Notes under the pieces: model-generated | What the model saw: the letters and a program-made list of their open reading frames with translations, nothing else | Databases searched by the model: none | Told to the model about the DNA's origin: nothing | Shown here: positions 14,339-62,082 of the stretch, one piece after another | Numbering within the stretch: the first letter of the stretch is position 1 | Layout: each line of letters begins with the position of its first letter | Translations under genes and position numbers: made by a program | Assembly: GCA_029856145.1 (NCBI GenBank) | Contig: JAHQWK010000019.1 | Coordinates: forward strand, 64,001-128,000 | Length of the DNA stretch: 64,000 nt | From: Promethearchaeia archaeon | Lineage (GTDB): Archaea; Asgardarchaeota; Lokiarchaeia; Sigyniarchaeales; SOKP01 | Direction of reading: 5' to 3'

Positions 14339-14420
14339 AATCATATTTTTTATTTTTTTTGTTTATAATGATTTATAGAGGCATATTCAAATTAATTTTT
14401 TTATAAATTGGTGATTATGA

Positions 14421-15584
14421 ATAAAGAGATTATACAAAATCTTAATTTCTGTTGGTTTTGTTTCAATTGCTGTCTTTTCTCTTGTTTATTTGTATTTTCC
14501 TACTAGTAATCTAAATATTCAAAACTATGAAATAGATTTGCAATTTAGTGCCGATAACGCTTATAATTATACAGAAGATCAATTAGATATTGGTTTTCGG
14601 ATACCTGGAACACAAGAACGTGTGGATTGCGCTAATTATTTCATAACTAAATTTTTAGAAATAGATAGTAATTTCACATATGCTCTTCATAATTTTACAG
14701 TCTATTCAACTGATTGTCAGAATGTGTTATTCAAATTAAACGAGAATAAATCTAATATTGTAATTTTAGGAGCACATTATGATTCTAGAGCTAGAGCAAC
14801 GAAAGATTTAACAAATACATCTGCTCCAGTTCCAGGTGCTAATGATGGTGCTAGTGGAAGTGCTATTTTAATTGAATTAGCAAGAAATTTCTATATAATG
14901 AGTGAGAATCTAAGTTGTCAAATATGGTTTGTCTTTTTTGATGCCGAAGATCAAGGATATGATCTGGGACCTGGTATAACTGGATGGGGATGGTGTGAAG
15001 GTTCTCAGAAATTTGTTTCCGAAATTAATAATTTTTATGATTCAGAAACAGAAAATTTTGAGTGTATGATTTTATTGGATATGGTGGGTGGAGAAAATCT
15101 AAAATTTATTAATGAACAACATTCTACCTCTTCATTATTGGATGAATTATTTGCTATTGGAAGGAGTTTAGGTTATACTGACGAATTTCCAATAAACCCA
15201 ATCTCTGGAGAAATTGTAGATGATCACGTAGCTTTTGTAAATTTTGGTATTCCTTCTGCAGATTTAATTATCAAATTTTGGAATAGAAATCCAGATTGGC
15301 CTTACCACCATACTACTAAAGATAACCTTACCTATATCGCTAAAGAAAGTCTTGAAACTACGGGCAAAACTGTTGAGCAATTTATCTATAATAACTACAT
15401 TGATGATCAAAATAACATTTATCAGGGAAATTATCCTTGGAATCAAGATAAAAGTCTACTGAACCTAGACGTAGTAATAATCATTACTATAATTATTGTT
15501 ATTGCAGGAATTTCAATTATAATATTAATTCCGACAACAGAAGTTACAAAAAAAAACGAATTGCTTGATTATAATATAATATAA
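14421..15584 (+). CDS. M28 metallopeptidase / glutaminyl-cyclase-like protein, membrane anchored; probable ATA start
   Basis: LGAHYDSR, GANDGASG, FFDAED, LLDMVG, DDH, HHTTKD. The open frame extends 23 codons upstream of the ORF-track start and encodes a signal anchor. Confidence 0.85.
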   Translation: MKRLYKILISVGFVSIAVFSLVYLYFPTSNLNIQNYEIDLQFSADNAYNYTEDQLDIGFRIPGTQERVDCANYFITKFLEIDSNFTYALHNFTVYSTDCQNVLFKLNENKSNIVILGAHYDSRARATKDLTNTSAPVPGANDGASGSAILIELARNFYIMSENLSCQIWFVFFDAEDQGYDLGPGITGWGWCEGSQKFVSEINNFYDSETENFECMILLDMVGGENLKFINEQHSTSSLLDELFAIGRSLGYTDEFPINPISGEIVDDHVAFVNFGIPSADLIIKFWNRNPDWPYHHTTKDNLTYIAKESLETTGKTVEQFIYNNYIDDQNNIYQGNYPWNQDKSLLNLDVVIIITIIIVIAGISIIILIPTTEVTKKNELLDYNII

Positions 15585-16472
15585 TTATTTATGTTTTATT
15601 ATCGTTCCACACTGCTGACAGAATTTTTCTAACTGAGCTAATTTCATACCACAAAATTTACAGAAATAAAAAATTTCTTTTAGTTTTTCTTCTTTTTTAT
15701 CTGGAATTGAAGGTATTGATTTTTGTTTCGATGCTTCCAAAATTGGTGGAGTTATCTGTTTTTGAGCCGTAGAAATTACTTCTATCTTCTCTTCCTCCTT
15801 AATTAATGTTGGTGGGATTGGTTGTAGTTCTTCAGTTTTTATTTGTGATAGCTCAGAAACAGTTTCTTCAGATGGTTTTGGGTGGGTTATTTCTGAAATT
15901 TTTGGAATCATTTCTGGTTTAGGGGTAGGAACCTCTTTAATTTTTTCTTTCCATTTATCCGGAATCGATGGGTCTGTTTGTATTTTTAAAAATTCTGATG
16001 GAGAAATATCAGCCAACGGTTTTGAAGTAGTTTTTTGTTTTATTGCTTGTTTTTTAACATATTTTTCTCTCCGTTCATTATAAAATGCGAAATATTTTTT
16101 CTTAGCTTTTCTTAAACTATTTCTACTTCCACATTTTTCACAATATCTTCGATTTCTAATTGAAAATTCCCAACAATAAACGCAAATAAAAGGATGTCCT
16201 TTTAAAAAAGTCTCTACATCTGAGATATCCGACCCTAATGGAATTGGCTTTATATCTTCAGTTTTTTCTTTTTTGAGTATAAAAAAATTAAAGTCCTTTT
16301 TGTTAGCTTTTCTTAAACTATATCTAGCGCCACAACCTTCACAATATTCTCTATATGTATCGGTAAACTTCCCACATCTATGACAGATTAAAGGCTGTGT
16401 CTTTAGGAATGCTTTCCTATTTTGTATTAATGGTATATTATCTTTTGTTAAATATTTTTCATCATCAGAAAT
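15585..16472 (-). CDS. Multi-zinc-ribbon protein (two N-terminal C4 repeats, Pro/Glu-rich linker, C-terminal C4 ribbon); probable ATT start
   Basis: Frame is open 152 codons upstream of the ORF-track start (16016), adding CHRC..CEGCG..SLRKA and CVYC..CEKCG..SLRKA. ATT lies 7 nt after GGTGA. Confidence 0.8.
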   Translation of the reverse strand: MSDDEKYLTKDNIPLIQNRKAFLKTQPLICHRCGKFTDTYREYCEGCGARYSLRKANKKDFNFFILKKEKTEDIKPIPLGSDISDVETFLKGHPFICVYCWEFSIRNRRYCEKCGSRNSLRKAKKKYFAFYNERREKYVKKQAIKQKTTSKPLADISPSEFLKIQTDPSIPDKWKEKIKEVPTPKPEMIPKISEITHPKPSEETVSELSQIKTEELQPIPPTLIKEEEKIEVISTAQKQITPPILEASKQKSIPSIPDKKEEKLKEIFYFCKFCGMKLAQLEKFCQQCGTIIKHK

Positions 16473-16586
16473 ATTATTTTCACCTTAAAAAATTCAATTT
16501 TGCAGTAAAAATGATCTAATGGTTTGTTGTATAATTTTGAATTTAAACATTTCTATGAATTGTAATTAAGGAAATTGAAAAATCCT

Positions 16587-17210
16587 TTATTTTTTGATGC
16601 CTAAAATTGCTCGATGTCTCTTTCTATCATTATAAATTTCTAATAAGTTGAAAGAACTATATACATCATGTATTTCCTCCATAGTAAAAAAATGATGTGG
16701 AAGTCCTTTTTCTTGCCCTGCTTGAGGGATGTACGTGCCTCTCTCAACCTCCTTTAACTTCCAATCATCTAATCCGCCTCTACCTTCTAATCTTGGGAAG
16801 GTTATAAAAATTACACCACCTTTTCTTAAAACTCTTTCAATTTCTCTTACTGTCATTAATATATCTTTCATTTTATTGTGGTGGATAACCTGAATCGAGA
16901 TAACAGCATCAAAAAAATTATCGGCGTAAGGAAATTTTGCCTCCATTCTATTTAGTTTTATCTTCACATTTAGATTTTCTTCTGCAAGCCATTCTTTAGC
17001 AATGGAAATCGCTTTAGGAGATGCGTCAAAACCATATATCTCAAAACCCTTTTTAGAAAAGAAAATAAGATGACGTCCGGTTCCAGACCCAACATCTAAT
17101 ATCTTCTGCACTCCCCTTTCTTCAAAGATTTTAACAATTTTCTCCATATCAGTATGGGGTTCAGTGAAGACTTTACCCTTTTCAGAAAAAATGTCATCCC
17201 AATCAGGCAT
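16587..17210 (-). CDS. Class I SAM-dependent methyltransferase
   Basis: ILDVGSGTGRH, GFDAS, FDAVIS..VIHH, RVLRKGG. Confidence 0.9.
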   Translation of the reverse strand: MPDWDDIFSEKGKVFTEPHTDMEKIVKIFEERGVQKILDVGSGTGRHLIFFSKKGFEIYGFDASPKAISIAKEWLAEENLNVKIKLNRMEAKFPYADNFFDAVISIQVIHHNKMKDILMTVREIERVLRKGGVIFITFPRLEGRGGLDDWKLKEVERGTYIPQAGQEKGLPHHFFTMEEIHDVYSSFNLLEIYNDRKRHRAILGIKK

Positions 17211-17246
17211 AATAAAAGAAGAAATTTATTTTTAACAATGATATCA

Positions 17247-18209
17247 TTAATGATCACATTCATAAAAATAGTGACCATATTTCTCTTTAAACTCTTCTGC
17301 AACTTCATTAGTTTTTGGACGTATAAGTTCATATCCATCTTTAATAGTTTCATAGGTAACCGGTAACGGACCCAAAACTTCCCCATCAACTTGACATATA
17401 TATGGATCATCATCAAGATTTTTCATTTCAATCCTAACTTTCTTACTTTGATATTCATGAATATTAGGATGAGGTAAAAGAGATGCGCTATACATCTTTT
17501 TAAATTGAACTAAAAGCTTAAATTTTCCAATATCAGCTATACTAATGTCAAACAACCCATCATTAATTCTAGCTTTCTGACATATATACATTCCGCCTCC
17601 ATAAGCACCACTATTTCCTACTGCAACTAAATTTGCATAGCCTTCGTAAATCTCATTATCCATTTTTACAACTAATTCTCGAGATTTCCAACCAAAGAGT
17701 GTTTGGAATATGATTAAATTATAATTTTTTCCTCCTTTCACATTTGATCTCCTTGCTACTTCAGCATCAAAGCCTTGTGATCCAATCCCTAAGAAGTAAC
17801 GCTCAACACCTTCATCTGTCTTAGCAAAACCAATATCACATTTACTGGAGTTTCCTTCTGCGATAATTTCACACGCACGTCTTATATCAGCTCTAATTCC
17901 CACCGCGGCAGGAATGTCATTACCTGAGCCCATTGGTATGAATCCACATAAGGCACCTGTATTAGATGTTATGACTCCATGAAACACTTGATTCGCAGTA
18001 CCATCTCCTCCGGCAGCTATAACTTTATATCCATCTTTTGCCAGTTGCCTAGCTAATTCAATAGCATGACCATCGTACTCTGTTTCTACTGATTTATATG
18101 ATATATTGAAGTCCTCTAAACATTTGAACGCATATTCAAGATCTTCCTTAGCTTTTCCCTTTTTAGCAATAGGATTATAAATAATCGCGTAATCTTCTAT
18201 AATTTTCAA
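17247..18209 (-). CDS. Diacylglycerol/lipid kinase family (YegS/DAGK)
   Basis: IYNP, AAGGDGTANQV, IPMGSGND, GFDA, YGGG, QVDGE. Confidence 0.9.
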   Translation of the reverse strand: MKIIEDYAIIYNPIAKKGKAKEDLEYAFKCLEDFNISYKSVETEYDGHAIELARQLAKDGYKVIAAGGDGTANQVFHGVITSNTGALCGFIPMGSGNDIPAAVGIRADIRRACEIIAEGNSSKCDIGFAKTDEGVERYFLGIGSQGFDAEVARRSNVKGGKNYNLIIFQTLFGWKSRELVVKMDNEIYEGYANLVAVGNSGAYGGGMYICQKARINDGLFDISIADIGKFKLLVQFKKMYSASLLPHPNIHEYQSKKVRIEMKNLDDDPYICQVDGEVLGPLPVTYETIKDGYELIRPKTNEVAEEFKEKYGHYFYECDH

Positions 18210-18316
18210 CTCAAATTATATAGATTATAATAAAAATATGACTATGATATCCTTTTAAATATCAAACTATTTAAAACTATTTTTGAGTGTCTTTTAGAAA
18301 AAGTAATTAAATCTCA

Positions 18317-19102
18317 TTATTTCCATTCAAATCCGCATTTACCACAATATTTCTTTTTTCCATAAATACGAGGATAATCCATTAAAATTAAGTTCTTATC
18401 CGTTACTTCATGAATTGACCCTTCATCTCCACAACTCGGACATTTCCTACGCCCAACGGATTTCTCAACTACTATGACACTATTATTAAATGAATCTGAA
18501 AGCGGTTTATCTTCGATAATATCTAAGACTGACTCTCTAATTTCTGTTGATGGTTCACTTTTAATTGAAGTTTCCGCTTTTTCTACCAAATAATCTTCAT
18601 TGATCATTATGATATATCCTTTAACTATTGAATGAAATTCATTTTCCTTTGGTAACCTATCAAATTTTTCTATGAAATTCTCTATAAACGTTTGAATATC
18701 GTTATTTTTGACAATAAATCCTTTTAATTCAATTGAACGTTTAATTTCTTGAATAATCTCCTCTTTTGAGGGCGTAGTTTTCTCAATTTTCTCAATATAT
18801 GTTGAGTTGGTTAATCTTTTTTCAAATTCTTTCCACAATTGTCTAACTTGAGCATCTGTTAGTTTCCCTTTAATTTGAATATAAACTCGTTTTTCTTGTT
18901 CTTGTAAAATAGTAATGCGATTGTCTTTCTGTTGTTCTTGATCAGTCTCGTTATCGAAAAAAGTTATTCTGAGCAAAGATCTTCCCAACCTTTTTGTATT
19001 AATTGAAAGAGATAAACTTTTTTCTAATATATTTTCCATAATTGTTTGAATTTCATTATAACTTTTGTCCCGTACGTCAAATGATTGACTTCTCTCTAAC
19101 AT
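18317..19102 (-). CDS. Hypothetical protein with C-terminal zinc ribbon
   Basis: RRKCPSCG...KKKYCGKCGFEWK. ATG at 19102 preferred (ORF track starts 19141). Confidence 0.7.
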   Translation of the reverse strand: MLERSQSFDVRDKSYNEIQTIMENILEKSLSLSINTKRLGRSLLRITFFDNETDQEQQKDNRITILQEQEKRVYIQIKGKLTDAQVRQLWKEFEKRLTNSTYIEKIEKTTPSKEEIIQEIKRSIELKGFIVKNNDIQTFIENFIEKFDRLPKENEFHSIVKGYIIMINEDYLVEKAETSIKSEPSTEIRESVLDIIEDKPLSDSFNNSVIVVEKSVGRRKCPSCGDEGSIHEVTDKNLILMDYPRIYGKKKYCGKCGFEWK

Positions 19103-19319
19103 TTTAAAGTTCTTAACCCTATTTACAATGCATTTATTCAATCAAATTGGATAATTTTATTCTAGACATTTTACTTTAAAATGTTAATCTTTTGATGCAA
19201 TTCAATATCATATTTAATGAATCGAAACTATCAATATCCTATCTGTGATTCATTATTTTAAGAAAATTTATATTGATATTTTGATTAAATTTGACCATAG
19301 AACAACTGATTTTTTTGTT

Positions 19320-20024
19320 ATGGAAAAAGAGATTCTAAAAACGGGTTCTAATAAGAAAAAATCGAAGGAAACGCAATCAACTTCAAAAAGAAAAATCATT
19401 ATCGCGGTTATATTGATAGTTTTTGCGTTTTCAGGATCATTTTTGATTTATTTTATCCTACAAATCTCTTTAAATACAAACACTCCTATGGTGGTAGTAG
19501 TTTCAGGCTCAATGGAACCAACCTTATTAAAAGGTGATTTATTATTCGTTCAAGGCAAAGACCCTGCCCAAATAAAAAATGGTACAATTGAAGGAAAGGA
19601 GGGTGATATAATTGTTTTTGATGCTTGGAACTTAGATGGTTGGATAGATCCCCCTCGTGATCCAATTGTCCATCGTGTTGTTGATAAATGGTATGATGGT
19701 GGTTGGTTTTTCCTCACTAAAGGTGATGCCAATCCAGTAGGTGATAATGTGCCTGTACCAGAGAATAGAGTCCTTGGAGTAGTAGTAGGAAGAATCCCCT
19801 TTATCGGATGGGTAAAAATTATTCTTGCAGATTCGGGATTATTAATTCCACTTTTAGTTATTGTATCCGCTTTACTTATTATAAGTATTATTTGGGATAT
19901 TGTGAAAAAGGATGATAATGGTAGAGATAAAAAGAAGGGAGAAAAAAAGCTAATCTATGATCCAAAAACGAAAGATGATGAATCAGTAAGAGAAATTGAA
20001 TTTGATTATACCAAAAATAATTAA
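19320..20024 (+). CDS. sec11: Signal peptidase I, archaeal/ER Sec11 type (S26B)
   Basis: VVVSGSMEP..KGDL, IVHRV, TKGDAN; N- and C-terminal TMs. Confidence 0.92.
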   Translation: MEKEILKTGSNKKKSKETQSTSKRKIIIAVILIVFAFSGSFLIYFILQISLNTNTPMVVVVSGSMEPTLLKGDLLFVQGKDPAQIKNGTIEGKEGDIIVFDAWNLDGWIDPPRDPIVHRVVDKWYDGGWFFLTKGDANPVGDNVPVPENRVLGVVVGRIPFIGWVKIILADSGLLIPLLVIVSALLIISIIWDIVKKDDNGRDKKKGEKKLIYDPKTKDDESVREIEFDYTKNN

Positions 20025-20156
20025 TTCAATTGATATTATTGCTAAGTAATTTTCTCCTTTATTCTAAAAGTAGAATATTTATAAAACTCTAAATCAAATA
20101 AATAAATACTAAATTTTATTTTAATAAAAAAACAAAAAAAAATTGGTGAATATAAT

Positions 20157-20375
20157 ATTTCGTGGACTCCTCCAACTAAAGTTACTGTTATTCTAACATT
20201 CTTGTTGATGGCTTTTGGGATATTTATCTTGCTTGATTTAACTAGCTTGATATGGCCTGGGTTTTTACCTTATTTTGAAATTGGAACATTACACGGGTGG
20301 CATATTATTTCACTGGTAGTACTTTTTCTCTCTTGGTTTCTCTTCTTTCTAGGTGTAAAATTAAAAGGTTTATAA
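20157..20375 (+). CDS. Small 2-TM membrane protein (72 aa), missed by ORF track, ATT start; paralog of 20412-20642
   Basis: Translates (M)SWTPPTKVTVILTFLLMAFGIFILLD...LSWFLFFLGVKLKGL*. ATT lies 7 nt after GGTGA and aligns with the ATG of the paralog. Confidence 0.88.
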   Translation: MSWTPPTKVTVILTFLLMAFGIFILLDLTSLIWPGFLPYFEIGTLHGWHIISLVVLFLSWFLFFLGVKLKGL

Positions 20376-20411
20376 TTATAGTTTAATTAAAAATAAAAAG
20401 TTGATTAATTT

Positions 20412-20642
20412 ATGGCATGGACTCCTCCATCTAGAGTGACTGTGTCATTAACATTCCTGTTAATGGCTTTTGGGATATTTATCTTACTCGACCAATTTAC
20501 TATATTTTGGACTGGTACTCTCCTACCGATAATTCATCCTTTTAATTTAAGCTCTTACGTATCATGGTTGCTGATTGCCATGATAGTATTCTTTTTCTCT
20601 TGGTTGCTATTTTACCTCGCTATAAAATTGAAAGGTTTATGA
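20412..20642 (+). CDS. Small 2-TM membrane protein (WTPP...KLKGL)
   Basis: Two TMs; tandem paralog of 20157-20375. Confidence 0.85.
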   Translation: MAWTPPSRVTVSLTFLLMAFGIFILLDQFTIFWTGTLLPIIHPFNLSSYVSWLLIAMIVFFFSWLLFYLAIKLKGL

Positions 20643-20897
20643 AATAATAAATTTAAATCTCTTTTTTTTCTTAATTTTATTTGGAAATGTCCCTCTTTAG
20701 TTAACTTCTGTTAGAAAATCAAAAATTCTTATTAATCTGACAATAAAATTTAAAACATTTCTAAAATTTCAAGAAAATGTTATTACGTAATTTAAAATCA
20801 AAAATACGATAAAACTACAAAACGTAATACGCAAACGCAAATTAACTAGAAAGTAAAGAAATACAATTAAAAATTAAATACAAAAGAGGAAATTAAA

Positions 20898-21182
20898 ATG
20901 TCAAAAGAAAAAGAAACAAATTCTGTTTTCGTTGGCCGCCGTCCAACAATGAACTATGTGATGGCCACTATGATGATCCTTAATAAAGGTGAGGATTGTA
21001 CTGTAAAAGCTAGAGGTAGAGCTATCTCCCATGCTGTCGATGTTTGTGAGATTTTGAGAAATAGATTCTTAAAGGGTACAGAATATAAAGACATCTTATT
21101 AAGCACAGAACAATTAGAAGGAGAAGACGGACAGAGTAACAACGTTTCAAGCATTGAAATTATACTTGCGCCTCCAAAATAA
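20898..21182 (+). CDS. albA: DNA/RNA-binding protein Alba
   Basis: VFVGRRPTMNYV, VKARGRAISHAVDV.E..R, VSSIEI. Confidence 0.95.
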   Translation: MSKEKETNSVFVGRRPTMNYVMATMMILNKGEDCTVKARGRAISHAVDVCEILRNRFLKGTEYKDILLSTEQLEGEDGQSNNVSSIEIILAPPK

Positions 21183-21223
21183 ACAGTGAAATTAACTATA
21201 ATTCGCTGAAACAAATAATGTAA

Positions 21224-21250
21224 TCTTTATTTTTTTTTATTATTCTATTT
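21224..21250 (+). terminator. Oligo-T terminator after alba
   Basis: TCTTTATTTTTTTTTATTATTCTATTT, similar to the tract after the histone gene. Confidence 0.55.
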
Positions 21251-21592
21251 ATATGATAGAAAATTTCGGTTTTACCTTTGATTTAAATAAAGCATTAAAA
21301 TTACTAAAAGCAACAAATGATTTTTTGTTTGTGAAAGAAGAAAAGAAAGATATATATTAATACGTTATTATATTGAAAGATATTCTCTTGTTAATAAATC
21401 TCATTATAATTAGTAGTAGTTAGATTTTAGTCAATTTTGTTGAACTATAAAGGAAATTACTAATTTTTTGGTAAAATCACAAAGTTTTATTAATACAGTT
21501 AGAAAATTAATAATTAACAAAAAATAAATTGTTTTAATTTTAAATCCAATTTTAAATAAACTATTAAAAAATTCAAAAAGAGGAAGATAAAA

Positions 21593-21787
21593 ATGGCTAA
21601 AAAGGGAGTAGAACCTTTGTATGTAAAATCTAAAGTAAGGGAATATATTAAGGGTAAAGATTGTAATACTAGCAGTGGCGTTCTTGATGGGGAAACTTTA
21701 AATAAACTCATAATGGAAATGCTTGATAATGCTGTAAGACGAGCAAAAGGTAATAATAGAAAAACAGTAAAGGCAAGAGATTTATAA
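21593..21787 (+). CDS. Histone-fold protein, alpha3-truncated (face-to-face/HTkC- or Bd0055-like) type
   Basis: YVKSKVREYIK...AVRRAKGNNRKTVKARDL; the RKTV..RD motif sits at the extreme C-terminus. Confidence 0.88.
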   Translation: MAKKGVEPLYVKSKVREYIKGKDCNTSSGVLDGETLNKLIMEMLDNAVRRAKGNNRKTVKARDL

Positions 21788-21807
21788 ATCCACTTGCTCA
21801 AAAATAT

Positions 21808-21829
21808 TCTTTTTTTTTATATTCTATTT
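21808..21829 (+). terminator. Oligo-T terminator after histone gene
   Basis: TCTTTTTTTTTATATTCTATTT. Confidence 0.55.
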
Positions 21830-22127
21830 CATAATGAGAGCATTATTTTTTAAATAATAACTGAAGGTTTTTCATACTTAGCTCGGCTGATTCCAGTAGA
21901 TAAATCCTTCTCGACAATTATTTTAGACGTAGATATATCTGGTAGATACTACTAATATTTCATTATTTTTTATAAGTACTCGAAATAAAATAAGAACAGG
22001 AGATATTTAAATCTCAAGTAATTGATATTTTTTCATCCTTAACTCAAATCCCTCTCTCCCTCCTTCCAAGTTTAAGATAGCATTATGAATATGCTCATTT
22101 TCAAAAAAATTTTCATCTTCTGAGATT

Positions 22128-24242: not shown

Positions 24243-24252
24243 TTTATAATGC

Positions 24253-25542: not shown

Positions 25543-25565
25543 TTTTGAAATCTTTCTAACATTTT

Positions 25566-27146: not shown

Positions 27147-27156
27147 ACTTTTCCAC

Positions 27157-28314: not shown

Positions 28315-28425
28315 TAAATATTTTTATAAATAATAAATCAATTAGAGTCAACAGATTTAACAGTTTTTATATTAATATTAAACTTTTTATTAATAGTATA
28401 TTGAAATAATCAACGGAATTTCTTA

Positions 28426-30967: not shown

Positions 30968-32428
30968 TTATATAGATATACCTAATTCTTTTGACACCCT
31001 TTCGCCCCAAGTTGAGTCCGCTTTAAAAAAGTGTTTAGCCATTCGTTCTTGAATGAACTTAGGTACAGTTTTTAGACTATTAACTAGATTCTGAATTAGG
31101 CGATCTTGCTCATCTGGAGGCATTAATCTATAGAGATTACCTGGTTGAATGAAATCAGCATCAACTCTTGGTTGATTATATCTATCGGCATCTCCAGAAA
31201 TTTTTAGAGGTGGTTCTTTAAAAGCGGGGTTTTCTTTGGGTCCACCAAAACTGTTTGGTTCATAAACCACAGAGTTTCCAAAATTACCATCAAACCGCAT
31301 AAAACCATCACGATGATATGTGTTTACTTTTGCAGCTTTTGGTTGATTAACAGGCAGTGATTGATAATTAACTCCGAGCCGATATCGATGCGCATCAGCA
31401 TAAGAGAAGAGTCTACCTTGGAGCATTTTGTCGGGTGAATAAGAAACACCTGGAACGCGATTTGATGGATCAAAAGCCGCTTGTTCAACTTCTGCAAAAT
31501 AATTTGATGGATTCCGATTTAGTTCCATTATCCCCACTTTAATTAATGGATAGTCTCCATGAGGCCAAACTTTAGTTAAATCAAACGGATTCCACTCATA
31601 AGTTTCAGCTTCAAGCTCTGGCATTATTTGTACGAATAACTCCCATTTTGGAAAATCTCCCCTCTCAATTCTCTCGTATAGATCACGAGTTGCCCAATCT
31701 GGATCGGTACCAGCAAGTTTATCCGCTTCTTCTTGCATGAAGTTTTTAATGCCTTGCATAGTTTTAAAATGAAATTTTACCCAGAAACGTTCATTATTTG
31801 CATTAATAAAACTATAAGTGTGACTTCCATAACCATTCATGTGTGGATGACCTCTAGGTATACCTCGATCGGAAAAAAGTATGGTTACTTGATGCAACGA
31901 TTCAGGAACTAAAGACCAGAAATCCCACCACATGGTTTGTGATTTGAGGTTTGTTTGAGGCATGCGCTTTTGAGTGTGAATGAAATCACTGAATTTTAAT
32001 GGATCTCTTACAAAAAATACTGGAGTATTATTGCCAACTAAATCCCAATTACCCTCTTCTGTATAAAATTTTATTGCGAACCCTCTGACATCTCTTACTG
32101 TATCTGCGGAGCCTCTTTCACCTGCCACTGTTGAAAATCGAATAATAAGCTCGGTCTTTTTTCCTACTTCAGAAAAAATTTTGGCTTTGGTATATTTTGT
32201 TATATTATTTGTTACAGTGAAAGTACCATATGCTCCTGCTCCTTTAGCATGTACTACACGCTCAGGTATTCTTTCTCTAGCAAAGGTTGCCAATTTCTCT
32301 AGCAAATGTACGTCCTGCATGAGAACTGGTCCTTTTTCACCAGCAGTTATTGAATTTTGATTATCTGCTACTGGTGCACCTCCAGCTGTTGTTAGTAATT
32401 TCTCTTCTTTTTTTTCTTTTTTTTCCAT
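30968..32428 (-). CDS. katA: Monofunctional small-subunit heme catalase
   Basis: [41 protein letters not shown]. Confidence 0.97.
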
Positions 32429-34162: not shown

Positions 34163-34240
34163 GGCTCTATCTTTTTTAGAGAAATTAGTGATAAATTTGA
34201 CGACAAAAAAGACATCAAAGTCACTTTAAATTAAAAGATT

Positions 34241-46977: not shown

Positions 46978-47027
46978 GCACATAAGGTTATATCAACTTG
47001 ATTTTTTTTAACTTATTAATTCTTTTT

Positions 47028-48108: not shown

Positions 48109-48292
48109 AAACCAGTCTCTCTATCTTTTTTTTTATTTTTTTAAAGAAAGTAATACAATTTTATTTTGATTTTTTTCTTATATCTTACGGATATCACACT
48201 CATCTATTAATTTGGGATAAATTTATATTTATAAAATTTTATGTGTTGCATACAACTTTTTTATTATTTTTATCCTTTGTGGGGTATAAATT

Positions 48293-49156: not shown

Positions 49157-49190
49157 AAGAGAGATAATAAGGTTAATTAAAAAAAATACT

Positions 49191-50813: not shown

Positions 50814-50940
50814 ATTTTATATAAATGATGTTAATGCAAATAAAGATTTATTTGACGTAAATTCATCAAAATTTTTACAGATTATTTGATTCTTGAAAAA
50901 ATAAACTTAATTTTTGATGGAATAATTTAGTAATTAATTT

Positions 50941-50974
50941 AGTTACCAATATAACGTAAGTTACCAATATAACG
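50941..50974. repeat. Perfect 16-bp direct repeat (period 18) of a palindromic unit; putative tandem operator
   Basis: AGTTACCAATATAACG at 50941-50956 and 50959-50974. Each unit reads GTTAC-N4-ATAAC. Confidence 0.85.
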
Positions 50975-50990
50975 CTAATTTTGATTTATC

Positions 50991-52397: not shown

Positions 52398-52400
52398 GCT

Positions 52401-53663: not shown

Positions 53664-53840
53664 TCAATTCACAATGACATTTTATATTTTATACTATATA
53701 TTTTATTTTGTTCTATCTCTTTTAATAGCTATCGATTTAAAACATTTAATTATAACTTTAGCATATTTTTCTAAAATTATTTCAAATTCATGAGACATTG
53801 GATTCATCTTTAATTTTTAATTGTACCCAAATACAATTAA

Positions 53841-53921
53841 GATCTTGTATTGGATAATGGTGAAAAAATAGTTATTAAAGATATGTTAGGGCACGCTGAG
53901 GATATTTACTGGCGCTGGTGA
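53841..53921 (+). pseudogene. 3' remnant of a DUF2804-like gene
   Basis: GC-richer patch translating DLVLDNGEKIVIKDMLGHAEDIYWRW*, preceded by an in-frame TAA. Resembles the DUF2804 C-terminus as I recall it. Confidence 0.5.
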
Positions 53922-53966
53922 ATCTATGATTCTATGGTGAAATTATTGTTTATAGTGTTGTGAAAT

Positions 53967-54614
53967 TTATTTAAGGAGATCCAAAGCTTTTTTAACTGCT
54001 AAAGGAGCTGTGAGAGCCCATCCATCAGCACCTTGTTGAAATGCTATATTCTCTGTAACAGGTCCACCACCTGCCATAATTTTTACTCCTTTTGCTTGCA
54101 AGTTTCTCCCTTTAGCTAATTTAACGATTTTTCCGATTTCAGGGAACATAGAGCTTAACATTACTGAAACTAGAATAAGGTTTGCATTATTTTTTTCTGC
54201 CTCTTCGATAAATTTTTCAGCGGGAACATCAAATCCCAGATCAATAATTTCGAAACCTTCTGCTTCGAATAAGTATTTAACCATATTCTTGCCAAGATCA
54301 TGGATATCTCCTTTAGCAACACCAAGAACAGCAATACCTTTACTAATTGCTTTAATTTTCTCTGGGGCTATTTTAGATTTTAAAATATTTGTGCCAGCGT
54401 AAAAAGCATCTGAGGCTAAGATCATATCTGTTAAATAGACAGTTTGCTCATATTGATCTGCAATTTCTTTTAAGCCTGGATATAAACCGTTTTTTATTGC
54501 TTCGAGCGGGTCAATCCCCGCATCTAATGCTTCCTTAGCAGCTTTTATGGCGGTTTCTTCATCAAAATTTAAAACACTTTGCTTTAGTTTATATAAAATT
54601 TCTTTTTCTGACAT
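53967..54614 (-). CDS. Corrinoid (B12-binding) protein, MtaC/MtbC-like
   Basis: N-terminal cap domain; GDIHDLGKNMV (DxHxxG), IDLG.DVP, AGGGP, GADG. Confidence 0.92.
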   Translation of the reverse strand: MSEKEILYKLKQSVLNFDEETAIKAAKEALDAGIDPLEAIKNGLYPGLKEIADQYEQTVYLTDMILASDAFYAGTNILKSKIAPEKIKAISKGIAVLGVAKGDIHDLGKNMVKYLFEAEGFEIIDLGFDVPAEKFIEEAEKNNANLILVSVMLSSMFPEIGKIVKLAKGRNLQAKGVKIMAGGGPVTENIAFQQGADGWALTAPLAVKKALDLLK

Positions 54615-54619
54615 GGTTG

Positions 54620-55747
54620 TTAACCTCCTCCTTCATCTGCATAATTTGCACCCATACCAGTTTGAAAATTTTTACCATATGTTCTGGCGGCTTTCACAAC
54701 TGCCATTGCATTATACAGAGGTGCATAGGGGGGATATTCACATGATGCCCCAAGAATATACCCAGCTGGTGACTTTCCAAAGACTTCGAGTTGTCTTTTA
54801 CATTCTTTTATAACTTCATGAGGATTTGCCCACGCAAGTAATGAAACGCTTAAAAATCCTAAGAAAATTAATTTTTTACCATATTTTTCAACCATTTCCT
54901 GTTCAGTTTTTACACCATCGGGCAAGAATGCGTTCTGAATTAAGACTGGTCGAAGATGCTCGATTAAAAGATCAAAGTAGGGACCTCGACCACAAGTATG
55001 AACCATGTAAAATGCTCGTTTTTTCCGCACAAAATCAGCAATCTTCTTTTGATAGGGCATATCTAATTCTAACCACATTTCTTTACTCATAAGCTCTCTC
55101 TCGGCTAAAACAACGGGAACCATAATTGTTTGAGCCCCCGACTCAATCTGTTTTTCGATATATTCTATTTGAATATCAGTTATAATTTCTAGTGCATCAT
55201 GAAGCTTATCTTTATGATGTACGAAATCTCTCACGAACTCATTAACATTGCGAAGACGACTTAATAATCCTAATGGGCCAATTGTCATCCCTCCAATCAT
55301 TAAATCAGGTAGTTCTTCTTTAATAGTTTTAACAACTTTTATTTGGTTATTCATCCTGTCAGCATGGGACCAATCAAATAATCTCTCTATGTTTTTGTAA
55401 TCATTAGGCGTTTTGATTATTGGATTATATGGATCTGGATAAGCAGCGTTGTCTGGCGGATATATAATTTTAGCTCCAAAACCTTGCGCCTCAACGCAAA
55501 GATCTGGCATTGCTGTAATACCATCATATCCAAAAAGCTGTTGTGCTTCTATTTGACATCTTAAAAATAAATCTGGTTTAGTAGCATATTCTCCATAGTT
55601 TAACCTTCTTATTTGAGCCGCTGCTGCTGAAACAAAGGGAAAGCACGGAACTCTATCAAGTTTCTTTCGCGTTAAAAGACCTGTTATTCTTTCCATTGGA
55701 GTCATATATTCTTCGCATTCTTTTGGCATTTTTTCTATTTTTGACAT
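54620..55747 (-). CDS. MtaA/CmuA-family methylcobamide methyltransferase (URO-D fold)
   Basis: TPMERI...DRVP, VEAQGFG, GPL, Zn motif HTC...GASC. ATG at 55747 preferred over the ORF-track start 55855. Confidence 0.88.
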   Translation of the reverse strand: MSKIEKMPKECEEYMTPMERITGLLTRKKLDRVPCFPFVSAAAAQIRRLNYGEYATKPDLFLRCQIEAQQLFGYDGITAMPDLCVEAQGFGAKIIYPPDNAAYPDPYNPIIKTPNDYKNIERLFDWSHADRMNNQIKVVKTIKEELPDLMIGGMTIGPLGLLSRLRNVNEFVRDFVHHKDKLHDALEIITDIQIEYIEKQIESGAQTIMVPVVLAERELMSKEMWLELDMPYQKKIADFVRKKRAFYMVHTCGRGPYFDLLIEHLRPVLIQNAFLPDGVKTEQEMVEKYGKKLIFLGFLSVSLLAWANPHEVIKECKRQLEVFGKSPAGYILGASCEYPPYAPLYNAMAVVKAARTYGKNFQTGMGANYADEGGG

Positions 55748-56044
55748 ATATTTCACTTCTTTTCTGAAAAAGGTTTTAAAAACAATATGAATTTTGAAAT
55801 ATTTATAATTAAAATAAGGGAATCCCAAGGTTTTAAAACTTTCACCCAAAAGCACGATCTTGTTATAAAATTTTGTTATAAAAATATAGTATATTAACTA
55901 TTTTCAAGAGAAAAAATTTAATTTATTGTCTTCACGTTAAAATTTTTATTTATGTAAAATATTTATAGGATATTGATATTTAGATTTTCAGATTTTATTT
56001 AAAAATGTTATTGCACCCTAATTTAATGCGACGCAACAAGTAAA

Positions 56045-58174
56045 ATGCATGAAGTAAATTTAGAATTAAAAAAATTGCTAACAGACGACCAAAAGTATAT
56101 TTTCATCGCTGGGGCTGGTTGTTCTATTAATTCACCTTCTAATCTTCCAAGTAGTAATGAAATAATGGAAGAAATAATTAAATTTACATGTGCAAAATCA
56201 GAAATTGAAAATATTTCTATATTGGAAGGATTAAGATTTGAAACATTATTAGAAATTATTAGAAATCAATTAGATAATGATTTGAAAATAGTAGAATATT
56301 TTGAACAATGCAATAGACCTAATATTATTCATTTTTTTCTGGCAGAAATGGTAAACAAGGGTCATGCTGTTATTACAACAAATTTTGATTTTTTGATTGA
56401 GCATGCCCTAATTCAATCTAACATTGGTAAGGATCATATCTTTTCAGTAATAACTGAAAAAGACTATAGAGAATTTAAAAATATTTTAGAAGAATTAGAC
56501 ACTGGGAAAAAATTTTTATTTAAAATTCATGGATCGATGAAAGATATATTGACTGAAAGGAATACTAAAGAATACTTTCTTTCATTAATTAAAAAAATTG
56601 GTTCTTTTAAATCCGAATTTGATTTGTTTTTTGTTGAACCATATAAAGGAGTTTTACTTAATAAGCTGTTAAATAATGCCATTTTAATTCTGATAGGTTA
56701 TTCTGGACAAAATGATTATGATATAATTCCCATCTTAAAGAAATATCATAAATTAAAAAGAATCCTGTGGGTTAATCATATTACAAACGATCAAGGGAAT
56801 AATAACATTCTTGAGATTGGAAAAAAAAGTAAAAAACCTCCCAAAGATATGGACGACTTAGATAAAATCCTTTTTCAGATCAAGAACCAGAATCCCAATG
56901 TTGAATTATTTAGAATAAATACAAATTCAATAAAATTTATAAAAAAGATTACAGATATTGAATATGATCTTAATACTAATGACTTTTCTATAGAATTTAG
57001 AGATTGGTTACACCAAAATGTTGAAATTCCTAATATGATGATGAAATATTTGATTCCCCATGTACTGTACTTTAATTTTGATAGATTTGATGATTCTTTC
57101 AGATGTGGTATAAGAGCACTAGAATATATTAATGAGAATGATGATCAAAATCATAAACTCTTAATTTTAAATAATATTGCATGGTTTTACTTTAGAATGG
57201 GAAATTATTCTGAAGCAATTTTAAATTTTGAAGAAGCACTTAAAATTTCTCAGAAATTAGGTTATAAAGATCGAGAAATTATTTATTTAAGTAATTTAGG
57301 AGAAATTGATGAGAGAATAAAGAATTTTCCTAAGGCGCTGCAAAGATACAAGGAAGCAATGAAAATACTGGAAGAAATTGGTAATCTCAGTGAAGAACTT
57401 AGAATTATTAATAGCATTATTGAAATATATGAAACAATACAAATTTATTCTGAAGCATTATTATACTCTGATAAGGCAATTAAAATTTCTGAAAAATTGG
57501 GTGATTTAAAAAAGAAAGCAATTATATCAAACAATATCGCATCAATTCATCATAAACTTGAAAATCTTAATTTATCTTTAGAATATTTCCAACAATCAGA
57601 AAAAATTTTCAGAAGATTAAATGATATTAGAAACTTAGCGATATGCTTGAACAATATTGGAACAATTTATCAAAATTTTGGAGATTTTTCGATTGCTTTA
57701 GAAAAATTCGAAGAGGCTTTGGAATATGATGAAAAATTGAAAAATAAAGAAGGAAAAGCTTGGCACTTATCTAAGGTAGGAGAAGTATATTTTAATCAAA
57801 AAAACTATATAGAATCCTTAAAATATTTTATAGATGCTATTAAAATATCCCAAGAGTTAAAAGATTTTAGAAGTGAAATGAAATTTCACAATTTGCTCGG
57901 AAAATCATATTATTATTTAAGGGATTATACAAATGCTATGAATTCATTTAATAAAGGGATAAAAATTGCAGAAATGTTTAAAGATTTACCAACAAAGGCA
58001 GATTTTCTTAACAATATTGCTGGATGTTATTTTATGCAGTTAAATTATGAAAAGTCTTTAAAATCTGCTGAAGAGTCACTTTTAATTCTTAAATTAATTG
58101 GATTGGGAAAATCTATAAAAGCAATAACTTTAGAAAAGAAAATAATGAATATGAAAAATCAAATTAAACTATAG
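56045..58174 (+). CDS. SIR2-like (NADase-type) domain fused to TPR array
   Basis: FIAGAGCS..SNLP, ITTNFD, KIHGS, IGYSG..DYDI; about 8 MalT-like TPRs (LNNIG..Y...A...EEAL). Confidence 0.88.
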   Translation: MHEVNLELKKLLTDDQKYIFIAGAGCSINSPSNLPSSNEIMEEIIKFTCAKSEIENISILEGLRFETLLEIIRNQLDNDLKIVEYFEQCNRPNIIHFFLAEMVNKGHAVITTNFDFLIEHALIQSNIGKDHIFSVITEKDYREFKNILEELDTGKKFLFKIHGSMKDILTERNTKEYFLSLIKKIGSFKSEFDLFFVEPYKGVLLNKLLNNAILILIGYSGQNDYDIIPILKKYHKLKRILWVNHITNDQGNNNILEIGKKSKKPPKDMDDLDKILFQIKNQNPNVELFRINTNSIKFIKKITDIEYDLNTNDFSIEFRDWLHQNVEIPNMMMKYLIPHVLYFNFDRFDDSFRCGIRALEYINENDDQNHKLLILNNIAWFYFRMGNYSEAILNFEEALKISQKLGYKDREIIYLSNLGEIDERIKNFPKALQRYKEAMKILEEIGNLSEELRIINSIIEIYETIQIYSEALLYSDKAIKISEKLGDLKKKAIISNNIASIHHKLENLNLSLEYFQQSEKIFRRLNDIRNLAICLNNIGTIYQNFGDFSIALEKFEEALEYDEKLKNKEGKAWHLSKVGEVYFNQKNYIESLKYFIDAIKISQELKDFRSEMKFHNLLGKSYYYLRDYTNAMNSFNKGIKIAEMFKDLPTKADFLNNIAGCYFMQLNYEKSLKSAEESLLILKLIGLGKSIKAITLEKKIMNMKNQIKL

Positions 58175-59509
58175 CTCTTTCATTGTTATATCTCGCTCAA
58201 TTTTTACCTTTATATTATGTGGGTCATCGATATGTATTATATTTATTGGAGTCATTTCTCTTTTACCAAGTAAATATGCAGGTTCTTCAGTTAGCTGTTT
58301 TTCTTCTTTAGAAATAATTTTTCTCACAAATACATCTGGAAAAACAGGTGTTGAATAGCAATAATGGCAAAAGGTCCTTTTTTTCGCGAGTTCGAGAATT
58401 TCTATGAGTTCTTCATCTGGAACATTACTCTCAACCTTTAATTCAATTTCGAAATTATCAATCATAGAGACACCATCTTCAATACCAAATCCCGTGGTTA
58501 AATCTATACACATTTTTGAATGAGTTTCTAATTTCTTAAGTTCAATACCGTGTAAACCCGCTAAAGTTGCAAAGTGTGTAGCAAAATCACCACTAAAACC
58601 TGCAATACAGAGCGCTACGGGATGAAAAGATGTTCCACCACCACCTAATATTATGGTTTCATCAGTTTGAACTGTTATTTCTCCTGCTGTTTCTGTGGGT
58701 AACTTAATTTCGAATTGGGGGCCATATTCTACATTTAATCTCCAGCGGCCTTCCGCTTCAATAAATCTTTTACATAACGAGCGATTTTGTTTGAATACCT
58801 CAACAGTATCTTTATATGTTTCTAAATTTATTCTATTGAGTATTTTTTTACCTTTTATATTTGAATTATTATGATAAAGGGATGGTTTTCCATCATTTTT
58901 TAAAATAATTTTAGGGATGGTTGAGGTTGCTATACAATAATAACAAAAACAACGCCTTTTTGTAATATCTGAAATTCTATATAATTCTTCATAACTGGCA
59001 TCACTTTCAATAAATAATTCAATTTGGTAATGATCAACTATGGGTATGTTTTCTTCAATATTTAATACTGAAGAGAAATCTAAATCACCCTTAACTCTTA
59101 TCATTAACTTTTTTAATTCAATCCCTTCCATTGCTGCCCATTTTGCATATGCTGCACAATAACATCCACAAAATCCTGCCATACATAAAGATATTGGATG
59201 GAGTGCTGTACCTCCTCCTCCAAAAAGAGTTAACTCATCCATTTGCACTGTGATTTCTCCTGCTCTTTCAGTTTTTAACCTTGTTTCAAATTGTGGCCCA
59301 TATTCCAAATCTAATCGCCATATGCCTTTTACTTCCAAAGTTTTTTTGCAAAGACTGCGATCTTTCATATATTGATCCACAACCTCTCTAAATCCTTTTA
59401 AATCAATGCGATTTAATAATATATGCTTTGGTACAGCGAGATCATTTACCTTTTCTTCTATTCTATCAGCAAGTTTCTTCAGAACATCTGTAAAATTTCC
59501 AAATCCCAT
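58169..59509 (-). CDS. Tandem double OsmC-like protein
   Basis: Two ~180-aa repeats: LNRI.L, DE...GGGGT..HP, AGF.G(C/D), GIELKKL, KR(C/T)FC.YC. Confidence 0.8.
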   Translation of the reverse strand: MGFGNFTDVLKKLADRIEEKVNDLAVPKHILLNRIDLKGFREVVDQYMKDRSLCKKTLEVKGIWRLDLEYGPQFETRLKTERAGEITVQMDELTLFGGGGTALHPISLCMAGFCGCYCAAYAKWAAMEGIELKKLMIRVKGDLDFSSVLNIEENIPIVDHYQIELFIESDASYEELYRISDITKRRCFCYYCIATSTIPKIILKNDGKPSLYHNNSNIKGKKILNRINLETYKDTVEVFKQNRSLCKRFIEAEGRWRLNVEYGPQFEIKLPTETAGEITVQTDETIILGGGGTSFHPVALCIAGFSGDFATHFATLAGLHGIELKKLETHSKMCIDLTTGFGIEDGVSMIDNFEIELKVESNVPDEELIEILELAKKRTFCHYCYSTPVFPDVFVRKIISKEEKQLTEEPAYLLGKREMTPINIIHIDDPHNIKVKIERDITMKEL

Positions 59510-59677
59510 GATAGCTTTTATGAAATAGTTAAGTTTTTAAAAATATAATAATATAATCTTATTTGATACCTTAAATATGAAAGAACAATTATTTCAATCT
59601 TTTGTATCAAAAATGTAAAGATAAAAAATATCTAAGAATAAATAAAAAAAAATAAATTGAATTTTAATTGAAGGTTT

Positions 59678-60076
59678 TTATATATCGCTCATCCTAAAAT
59701 ATAAATCTATTTTATGCTGGAAATCTTCAAAAAAAGATATATCTCCATTCCACTTTATAATATCTTCAATTGAAAACATTTTTTCAAACATAGTACCAAT
59801 CACCGAGCAAATTTTTTGAATTTTTTTCTTATTCGCATCTAATGGTGATCTACATACTAATACAAGTTGGTTTTCCAGGCAATGAATACAAGAATATTTA
59901 TTGTTACCAATATTGAATCCTTTCAATTCTCTTCCTGAAACTTTTTGACTGAATGTTTTTATCGCAGAAATAAAGAATCCTAAGAAAGTTTTCTCAACAT
60001 TCTTTTCTCTTGAAAAATCAACTATAGGAACACCTGCCTTAGAAAAAACCCAAAGCTCATCAAGTAATGGAGACAT
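59678..60076 (-). CDS. Longin-like domain protein
   Basis: LWVFSKAGVPIV, LG.FISAI.TFSQ...EL..F, F..MF...WNGDISFF..F pattern. Confidence 0.72.
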   Translation of the reverse strand: MSPLLDELWVFSKAGVPIVDFSREKNVEKTFLGFFISAIKTFSQKVSGRELKGFNIGNNKYSCIHCLENQLVLVCRSPLDANKKKIQKICSVIGTMFEKMFSIEDIIKWNGDISFFEDFQHKIDLYFRMSDI

Positions 60077-60107
60077 ATTTTAATTATAATTTTTTTCGAT
60101 TTATATT

Positions 60108-60440
60108 TTATTTTTTAGAACTGGAGCCCATAAGAATTTCTTTATAGGTCTTATAGCTAAGATTAACAATTATTAAAACAAATAATCCGCCGAAGATGTA
60201 AACAATTGCAACCATAATGTTGGTAATTGCCGTCATTTCAAGAGCTAAAAATATGATGTTAAAAATATATCCACCTAAAAACAAAACAATCAATATTTGT
60301 ATCATTACCCATTTTTTAACTAATTTTGTTGCAGGAAATAACTCTTTTATTCTAATGACAATCAGTAGACTAAAAATGAAAAATATTATTCCTCCAATCG
60401 AACAGAACAAACTAAAATAGAAATTCAAATCTAAAACCAT
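60108..60440 (-). CDS. Small 3-TM membrane protein
   Basis: Three hydrophobic helices; lies between two longin-like genes. Confidence 0.72.
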   Translation of the reverse strand: MVLDLNFYFSLFCSIGGIIFFIFSLLIVIRIKELFPATKLVKKWVMIQILIVLFLGGYIFNIIFLALEMTAITNIMVAIVYIFGGLFVLIIVNLSYKTYKEILMGSSSKK

Positions 60441-60568
60441 AATAATACCCTCATTTGTATAATTATTTATTTATTAATTTTGAATATTTTCTAATTGTTT
60501 TTATCTGTATATAACTTTTTTCTTATAGTAATCTTCAAAATGGTAAGTATATTTTTAATATTAATGAT

Positions 60569-60961
60569 TTAATCAATTAAATACTTAATTTCTGAAAGGA
60601 ATCTCTGTTCACTATTTGAAAACACGCTTCTATTTCCCTCAAAATCTTCTATCAGGATTTTAGGATAAATCTCAAAAAATCTCTTAGATACAATATCTAA
60701 TTCTTCATTTACTTTATCCTCTTTAACATTACTATCACAACATGCTAAAAATATAATTTCTTCTTTTTTCTTTATTGTTATTAATTTGTCCCCCCATTCT
60801 ATATTTGATAATTCTCCATCTGCTATGTGTTTAGTTAGCGCATTAAAAGCAACTAAAACTTGTCCAAAGAATTCAGAACAAAACTCTTGATCATTTATAC
60901 GGTCAAACAAAATATTGTTCTTTTTATCTAAAATAGCAAAATTTTCAAATAATTTTCCCAG
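60569..60961 (-). CDS. Longin-like domain protein; probable CTG (60961) or ATT (60967) start
   Basis: Upstream extension adds (M)GKLFENFAILDKKNNIL, the first longin strands. LVAFNAL...ELSNIEW, RFFEIYP...FEGNRSVF. Confidence 0.68.
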   Translation of the reverse strand: MGKLFENFAILDKKNNILFDRINDQEFCSEFFGQVLVAFNALTKHIADGELSNIEWGDKLITIKKKEEIIFLACCDSNVKEDKVNEELDIVSKRFFEIYPKILIEDFEGNRSVFSNSEQRFLSEIKYLID

Positions 60962-61389
60962 TGAAATCGCCTACTAAATATTTTCTTTAAAATGCAATTT
61001 TTGTTAAATAAATATTGATAATTCTTATTAAAATACTTATTAAAATCGTATTAATGAAATTATTTATTTGTATGTTCTCTCTAATCAATAATCATAAATT
61101 TAGATTATTTTTAATTTCCAGTCAAAATTGTCAATTTATTGAAAGACAAATAATTTGATATTTATTCTTTTATTTTTTATTATATTTTCCATTGAAAGAA
61201 GGTAAATTAATAAATACTAATTAAATTTATTTATTCAAATATAAATTGATTAAAATTGAATAAAATTAACTAAAATAAAAAATAATAGTTAAATCTTAAG
61301 AATATTTTTATAATAAAACTCAAAAAGCTTTATCAATTTTTAAAATTCTAAAACTCACGGATAATTAAATAATTTTGAGGTGAAATTCT

Positions 61390-62082
61390 ATTAGTATTGA
61401 TTGGCTTAAAGTAGAAGAAGAACCAGAAAGAACTTTTAAAGTAGAAGGTAGGTTTCTCTTAGATCTCTATGCAAAGACTAATGATTTAGAAAAAAGTATA
61501 ATGAATTATAGGGAAACAGCGAGAAAAGCCATTGAAGATTTTGAAGAAGCCAAAACAGAATTAACAGAATTAGATAAATTAAAAGAGGAATTACCCGTTG
61601 TTAACAAGAATCTTGATGAATTAAAGGGAAAAAATAGAAAATTAGAAGATGATTTAAATAATAATCAGCAAATTATCAATGAATTAGAAGCAAAGTTGAA
61701 AGAATCAGAAACTAAAATAAAAAGTTTAGAAATTGAATTTAAAAATCAAAAAAACCATAGTGTTAATAAGGAAAAGGAGTTAGAATCATTGAAAAATGAT
61801 TTAGAAGCTAAAATTGCGAAAAATCAAGAAAAACTTGATTTAGCTGAAAACAATTTAGCTAAGAAGGCTAAGGAAAATGAAAGTATTAAGGCGGAATATG
61901 AGGAAAAAATTGAAGATACTAAAAAAAAACTTGTAGATTTAGAATCCAGAAATCGAACATTGGAAGCTCAGATTTTAGATGCTGTTAGATTACCTAAAAT
62001 ATTAAAAGATATTAGAAATATATTGGTACATAAAGGTTTTATCTCAGAAAAAGAATTTGAAGATATTATGAAACAAAAATAA
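61390..62082 (+). CDS. Coiled-coil protein; probable ATT start
   Basis: GAGGTGA + 6 nt + ATT gives (M)SIDWLKVEEEPERTFKVEGRFLLDL, in frame with the ORF-track start 61501. Long heptad region ends in KGFISEKEF. Confidence 0.78.
   Translation: MSIDWLKVEEEPERTFKVEGRFLLDLYAKTNDLEKSIMNYRETARKAIEDFEEAKTELTELDKLKEELPVVNKNLDELKGKNRKLEDDLNNNQQIINELEAKLKESETKIKSLEIEFKNQKNHSVNKEKELESLKNDLEAKIAKNQEKLDLAENNLAKKAKENESIKAEYEEKIEDTKKKLVDLESRNRTLEAQILDAVRLPKILKDIRNILVHKGFISEKEFEDIMKQK

Follow-up and report, generated by a model that had tools for sequence, protein, structure and literature searches.

Five genes in the stretch of DNA studied here very probably start at ATT, ATA, or CTG codons behind a strong Shine-Dalgarno (SD) motif, as do at least about 70 genes genome-wide, where ATC and ACG also serve. 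The stretch (the window) comprises 64,000 nucleotides of a Promethearchaeia archaeon, positions 64001-128000 of contig C19 (JAHQWK010000019.1), and belongs to a genome (G000) of 3.55 Mb with 29.9% GC and 97% completeness. Matching DNA occurs in marine sediment and subsurface metagenomes from several studies, and no RNA data set is listed with a match. On the sequence evidence set out below, we consider it highly probable that the five codons and the genome-wide set are true SD-anchored translation starts in this archaeon's genus. ATG, GTG, and TTG are referred to as canonical starts, ATT, ATA, and ATC together as ATH, and ATH, CTG, and ACG as near-cognate codons.

The original prediction had flagged five near-cognate codons at SD distance in frames lacking a canonical alternative, and the codons, motifs, and spacings were found as described. 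ATT 20157 (+) lies 7 nt after the GGTGA at 20145..20149 (+), ATT 16472 (-) 7 nt after the GGTGA at 16480..16484 (-), ATT 61390 (+) 6 nt after the GAGGTGA at 61377..61383 (+), the TGA of which is the in-frame stop, and ATA 14421 (+) 6 nt after the GGTGA at 14410..14414 (+). CTG 60961 (-) follows an SD-like GGCGA at 60967..60971 (-) by 5 nt. The motif before 14421 is complementary to the 16S rRNA 3' end of the relatives G022 and G032 (GGATCACCTCC), from which the sequence was taken because this end is missing from the G000 assembly. None of the five frames contains an in-frame ATG, GTG, or TTG in the interval that runs from the upstream stop to the flagged codon. This interval is 17, 4, 2, 0, and 3 codons long for 20157, 16472, 61390, 14421, and 60961, respectively, and a canonical start is first reached 15, 152, 37, 23, and 17 codons downstream. 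SD-linked near-cognate starts were not found in the long open window frames upstream of 19320, 55747, and 62374.

Assembly error, named in advance as an outcome that would overturn the prediction, does not explain the five codons, because independent contigs and public assemblies agree. Contigs from run X3 cover 14421 and 16472, and contigs from run X4, which belongs to another study, cover 14421, 16472, and 20157, in both cases with zero letter differences. The five codons are also unchanged in six public assemblies (L334-L339). In a diverged strain (X9), three spacer bases before 14421 have changed and an out-of-frame ATG has been lost, with the ATA retained. Sequencing errors were therefore rejected. 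The wider explanation to which they belong, that the downstream ATG or TTG codons are the true starts or that TGA is read through, is very improbable. Canonical codons do occur 15-37 codons into four of the genes; however, the N-terminal segments ahead of them are conserved and hold parts of domains. As for readthrough, TGA ends 371 of 2618 long open reading frames, tryptophan is encoded by TGG, and the upstream stops of orthologues also include TAA and TAG.

Alignment of orthologue N-termini, proposed as a check with the original prediction, showed that conservation starts from the flagged codons, which coincide with the N-termini of homologues; these often have ATG, TTG, or GTG at the same position without a change in length. 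The gene at 14421..15584 (+) encodes an M28 peptidase of 387 amino acids (Pfam PF04389). Its ATA directly follows an in-frame TGA, and a basic region and a hydrophobic anchor run from residue 2. The GGTG core is kept in 25/25 orthologue loci, and the start is ATA in 22 and ATT in 3 of these close loci, whereas a distant relative (L348) has ATG at the flagged position without GGTG. The gene at 15585..16472 (-) encodes a zinc-ribbon repeat protein of 295 amino acids, and both of its Pfam zinc ribbons (residues 26-48 and 94-117) precede the first canonical start at codon 152. ATT behind GGTGA was found for this gene in three other genomes. In a strain variant (L338:7096-7947), codon 13 has changed from ATA to ATG and the public call is 283 amino acids, with the ATT and SD the same.

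The hydrophobic protein of 72 amino acids encoded at 20157..20375 (+) has an xWTPP N-terminus and no Pfam match; at the start position, most genomes have ATG in this family, with ATT seen in G005 (two copies), AAG in G019, and TTG in G013. The longin-domain protein at 60569..60961 (-), with 130 amino acids (Pfam Fuz_longin_1, residues 8-92), starts at CTG in eight, TTG in two, and GTG in one of 11 close orthologues, which have GGCGA, GGTGA, AGTGA, or GGGGA at the SD position. The gene at 61390..62082 (+) encodes a coiled-coil protein of 230 amino acids with a conserved xSIDW N-terminus, in which x is ATT, ATA, ATC, ATG, or TTG at the same position. By a hand count of related and hence non-independent genomes, GGTGA precedes 19/20 ATH copies versus 1/7 ATG copies. 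As had been foreseen for standard gene callers, public calls shortened four of the five genes (M28 peptidase, 364 amino acids from a TTG; zinc-ribbon protein, 143; longin protein, 113; coiled-coil protein, 193) and omitted the fifth, the 72-amino acid gene, on L337/L338.

Two further features of the five sites carried no weight. Serine follows all three ATT codons; however, it is the commonest second residue after ATG as well (19%, versus 24% after near-cognates). Two of the start contexts are nearly identical, but spacers vary among orthologues, so that the likeness does not represent a conserved motif.

A DAGK/YegS-like kinase gene at 17247..18200 (-) is a weaker, additional candidate. Relatives mostly have ATG, and one has GTG, at the position of its ATA 18200, and in L352 the ATG stands in an identical upstream context. 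The assignment of ATA 18200 as the start is uncertain because an in-frame TTG lies three codons upstream (18209); the public call uses this TTG (320 amino acids).

Genome-wide SD and start counts covered G000, genus relatives with overlapping gene sets, and 1.1 Mb of the sister family; the family's other genera, the order's two other families, and other Asgard families were too thinly sampled. The count proposed with the original prediction gave a clear signal. Near gene 5' ends in G000, near-cognate codons stood 5-6 nt after GGTGA in 54/162 cases in frame versus 19/294 out of frame (p ~3e-13) and versus 35/337 at spacings of 8-12 (p ~1e-9). For canonical codons at 5-6 nt, the corresponding values were 55/162 in frame and 3/294 out of frame. 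GGTGT and GGTGG enriched near-cognates as GGTGA did, whereas AGTGA, TGTGA, GGTTA, GGTAA, GGAGA, and GATGA enriched canonical starts only. With GGTG[ATG] pooled at 5-6 nt, 269 in-frame cases comprised 87 near-cognate and 80 canonical codons against an out-of-frame near-cognate background of 39/543 (7-9%). The near-cognate excess amounted to about 65 genes, plus about nine at spacing 7. Near-cognate starts thus appear to be used in roughly every second gene that has GGTG at 5-6 nt and in at least about 65-75 genes, or about 2% of 3265. The share of G000 genes is estimated at 2-7%, the upper figure being a possibility only.

An unsupervised mixture model in which all codons were allowed assigned 73% of starts to ATG, 10% to TTG, 4.9% to ATT, 3.3% to ATA, 2.7% to GTG, and 1.1% to ATC, in keeping with the claim that TTG (about 10%) and GTG (about 3%) are in regular use. 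The gain in likelihood from near-cognates was about double that from control codons, and near-cognates were linked to SDs, which the controls were not: the SD-linked share was about 8% versus 0.4-1%, with 94 versus 23-25 confident calls. The raw near-cognate figure of 10-11% is too high, because control sets absorb 7-8% of genes; genes split by short insertions account for part of the inflation. SD match length rose from ATG (3.1) through TTG (4.2), ATT (4.8), and ATA (5.3) to CTG (5.9), a trend that is partly circular since the model uses the SD. When 88 genes were aligned with their orthologues, the codon opposite a G000 start called as ATH was ATG in 20/106 comparisons versus 4/969 for internal isoleucine codons, although the loci are not independent.

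From the observed codons, SD dependence, homology with ATG starts, and taxonomic range, we infer initiation with methionine, compensation by the SD, and reduced efficiency. The GGTG(A) core of the mRNA would pair with the 16S 3' end and anchor the small ribosomal subunit, so that a codon 5-7 nt downstream would be placed in the P site. There, the ordinary Met-tRNAi (initiator tRNA, anticodon CAU) would put up with mispairing at any one position of the codon (AUU/AUA/AUC, CUG, or ACG). Strong SD pairing would offset the weak codon, whereas ATG would tolerate a weak or absent SD; the near restriction of near-cognate starts to GGTG may be attributed to this compensation. Near-cognate output is likely lower than that of AUG, or tunable relative to it.

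Several observations weigh against SD-anchored near-cognate initiation. ATA 18200 has no GGTG, control codons take up the share of genes given above without any SD, and the SD of the aIF1 gene discussed below is atypical (AGGTTGTGA) and stands farther from the start, mostly at 9 nt. In addition, comparison of aIF1, tRNAi, and the 16S 3' end revealed no molecular cause of the higher tolerance.

Splicing was considered as another explanation, in which the open reading frames are 3' exons joined to an upstream ATG exon through bulge-helix-bulge introns. G000 and a few relatives do carry 30-nt stop-containing hairpin insertions in the aIF2-gamma and uS3 genes, and excision of the uS3 insertion creates an ATG codon. 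At the five sites, however, orthologues have ATG at the identical position with equal length, conservation begins at the flagged codon, dependence on SD distance is sharp, and no clear hairpin lies upstream (folding z ~0 to -2). Split genes of this kind were rejected at the five sites on the strength of the colinear ATG orthologues and the SD-distance dependence, and we regard splicing as most improbable.

SD-anchored near-cognate starts were detected in the source genus by sequence comparison, with the non-AUG start of aIF1 extending family-wide. The essential ribosomal protein uS14 has ATA or ATT behind GGTGA-N6 as its start in 19/19 genus genomes, in which a stop lies 2-5 codons upstream and no canonical start is possible; its start is canonical in all non-genus Asgard loci examined. 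uL15 starts at ATH in seven genus genomes and uS8 at ACG in two, and the cluster's remaining ribosomal proteins mostly start at ATG. Enrichment behind GGTG recurred in genus relatives (19/51 versus 6/121, overlapping gene sets). In 1.1 Mb of the sister family, near-cognates behind GGTG were not enriched (9/96 versus 16/212). Weaker motifs gave 44/318 versus 48/597 there (p 0.004), a weak signal from one of ten tests that was not relied on. The mixture model, which is noisy on samples of 200-450 kb (2-29% "other" codons) and was used only qualitatively, returned 7-12% ATH starts in G000 subsamples versus 1-4% in the sister family. Relaxed, SD-guided start selection, ascribed originally to the lineage, is thus supported for the genus, and for aIF1 across the family, but not for the sister family behind GGTG. 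We take the sister family to include the cultured Lokiarchaea; since it lacks the GGTG-linked signal, proteomics in those cultures may be unable to test the trait.

The initiation machinery was also compared. The G000 assembly yielded no aIF1, aIF2-beta, or tRNAi gene, whereas 32/35 genus relatives have aIF1 and 16/18 have aIF2-beta. A single assembly gap is the most likely reason, because relatives keep all three in a block of about 25 kb (a distance of about 22-26 kb separates aIF1 from aIF2-beta on the same contig, and tRNAi is within about 1 kb of aIF2-beta) and the neighbours of aIF1 are likewise missing. G000 has aIF1A, aIF2-alpha/gamma, and KsgA, and the anti-SD at the 16S 3' end is intact in a genus relative. 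The tRNAi genes read from four family members have the canonical features, namely A1-U72, a CAU anticodon, and three G-C pairs. Loss of fidelity through loss of aIF1, aIF2-beta, or KsgA or through an altered tRNAi was therefore rejected: relatives with ATH starts have aIF1, aIF2-beta, and tRNAi, KsgA is present in G000, and tRNAi is canonical. Inspection of the fidelity residues of aIF1, a SUI1 protein, likewise gave no cause for the tolerance; most of the zinc knuckle, the basic loop, and the (L)QGD motif is preserved.

Among the 29 family sequences read, the start codon of aIF1 is ATT (23), ATA (5), or ATC (1) and never ATG. This start usually lies 1-3 codons past a stop, at about the N-terminus of a solved archaeal aIF1 (4MO0, E 2e-26). 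An internal isoleucine codon of the same genes varies (ATA 11, ATT 10, ATC 4). In sister-family genomes that form single contigs (6,035,313 and 4,324,194 bases), aIF1 starts at ATG and TTG. ATA was the apparent aIF1 start in one genus of the sister family and in two further Asgard families, and CTG in a third family (L079, L084, L074, L106); these are one genome each, and most other non-family aIF1 genes start at ATG, GTG, or TTG.

Bacterial IF3 (infC) is an autoregulated fidelity factor, and eIF1 is reportedly autoregulated through an AUG in poor context in eukaryotes (Ivanov, 2010). aIF1 resembles eIF1 as a SUI1-family fidelity factor with a conserved weak start (29/29 in the family, in relatives and not in G000), and differs from it in that a near-cognate codon with an SD takes the place of a poor Kozak context. 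The conserved AUU start of aIF1 is plausibly part of a feedback loop. In addition to SD-anchored initiation, aIF1 might limit its own synthesis through this start and so set all near-cognate output, a possibility that we put forward tentatively. The non-AUG start is kept in the whole family though the internal isoleucine codon varies, the ATA and CTG starts of aIF1 in further groups point the same way, and, within the close set, the starts of uS14 and the M28 gene vary between ATA and ATT without becoming ATG. aIF1 has a fidelity role in Sulfolobus and Pyrococcus, according to PMC6237735, in which aIF1 is cited as destabilising non-AUG complexes in Sulfolobus. However, aIF1 is absent from the G000 assembly, G occupies only 9% of fourfold sites so that the missing ATG in relatives is a weak sign of selection, 6/29 aIF1 genes have an in-frame GTG four codons upstream, within the SD, and several other families alternate freely with ATG. 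A circuit throughout this Lokiarchaeia family, in which the aIF1 level would gate 70-200 strong-SD near-cognate genes including uS14 and feed back on itself, is more doubtful.

Near-neutral drift would need no regulation: with lax fidelity behind a strong SD, mutation from G to A or T (30% GC) would convert ATG to ATA or ATT. We consider this quite possible, if short of probable. The 61390 and 20157 families and uL15 alternate freely, and the change from ATG to ATA at 18200 appears recent, with the context the same. In contrast, the near-invariant ATT of aIF1 is retained family-wide, the sister family is AT-rich as well (30-34% GC) and has no enrichment behind GGTG, and AT bias leaves CTG and ACG unexplained. 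The regulatory layer suggested originally is no more than a possibility, since some families alternate freely, through tuning or drift, though aIF1, uS14, and the M28 gene stay non-AUG.

In Escherichia coli, infC and pcnB start at AUU. The sequence-level features of such SD-assisted near-cognate initiation appear to be present here: AUU or AUA codons, a strong SD at normal distance, conservation in relatives, and a fidelity factor among the genes. Whereas a bacterial genome has only a few such genes (four in Staphylococcus aureus), at least about 70 are involved here; moreover, the machinery is archaeal (aIF1/aIF2), a ribosomal protein is included, and CUG and ACG are used. The near-cognate starts of S. 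aureus are those of infC, ccpN, citZ (AUA), and cvfC1 (AUU), and its AUU and AUA starts with an extended SD give about 10% of AUG output (PMC13009471).

Among archaea, a review names AUG, GUG, and UUG as the sole starts (PMC7531240, 2020). The present genes share with archaeal SD-led initiation the same anti-SD (AUCACCUCC), a spacing peak of 5-7 nt, the same factors, and a canonical tRNAi. They differ from it in that AUH, CUG, and ACG equal canonical starts in number behind GGTG. Strong SDs are a minority here, which matches the remark on Lokiarchaea in that review (PMC7531240). The relevant passages of a 2026 Asgard review do not mention alternative starts (PMC12993045), and our literature search, which left most subscription papers outside, found no description of AUH starts at genome scale in Asgard or other archaea.

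Standard gene finders miss some near-cognate proteins altogether and shorten others, which here removes an anchor helix from one protein, half of the zinc-ribbon repeat protein, and part of the longin domain, so that Asgard protein catalogues are affected by lost N-termini and genes. The same gene occurring as ATG with a weak SD or as ATT with GGTGA provides a natural series for studying SD strength against codon-anticodon pairing, and the series bears on that trade-off under aIF1/aIF2. The AUU start of aIF1 allows the feedback shared by IF3 and eIF1 to be tested in archaea; if the aIF1 circuit exists, archaea would have their own equivalent of IF3/eIF1 autoregulation, with output at genome scale.

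Housekeeping genes of G000 supply additional strict candidates for near-cognate starts; named by resemblance only, these are an eL21-like protein near ksgA with ATA (C9 ~424804 (+)), a basic ribosomal-protein-like open reading frame with CTG (C19 ~136862 (+)), and an A/V-ATPase subunit D-like open reading frame with ATA (C11 (-)). Beside the 72-amino acid gene lies an ATG-led tandem paralogue at 20415-20639 (+), followed by an Alba gene (PF01918) at 20898-21182 (+); in some relatives, the 72-amino acid gene is present as two or three tandem copies.

A 30-nt insertion that holds two in-frame stops and an internal hairpin splits the P-loop of aIF2-gamma (GHVDHG / KTT) in G000 (C5 ~34199-34228 (+)) and in L302/L304. 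The insertion site is common to G001 and G024, and the insertion was absent from 27 other loci examined. It resembles an mRNA intron of the bulge-helix-bulge type, here within a factor for start selection. In uS3, an insertion of 30 nt with a stop precedes PQIEVE in G000 (C8 ~31420-31455 (-)), L130, and L132; G017 and G021 have an insertion at the same site and a second one in the VIGKGG motif. In the genus, aIF2-gamma also has an N-terminal extension of about 110-130 amino acids that begins with a helix-hairpin-helix-like repeat (G000 C5 33827-34180 (+); L304-L327); the extensions in the sister family differ and are often lysine-rich. Introns of tRNAi were seen in the anticodon loop, T-loop, or D-arm (L299, L300, L301, L288-L290, L294, L295), and G000 carries a tRNA-Sec gene at C8 12915-13007.

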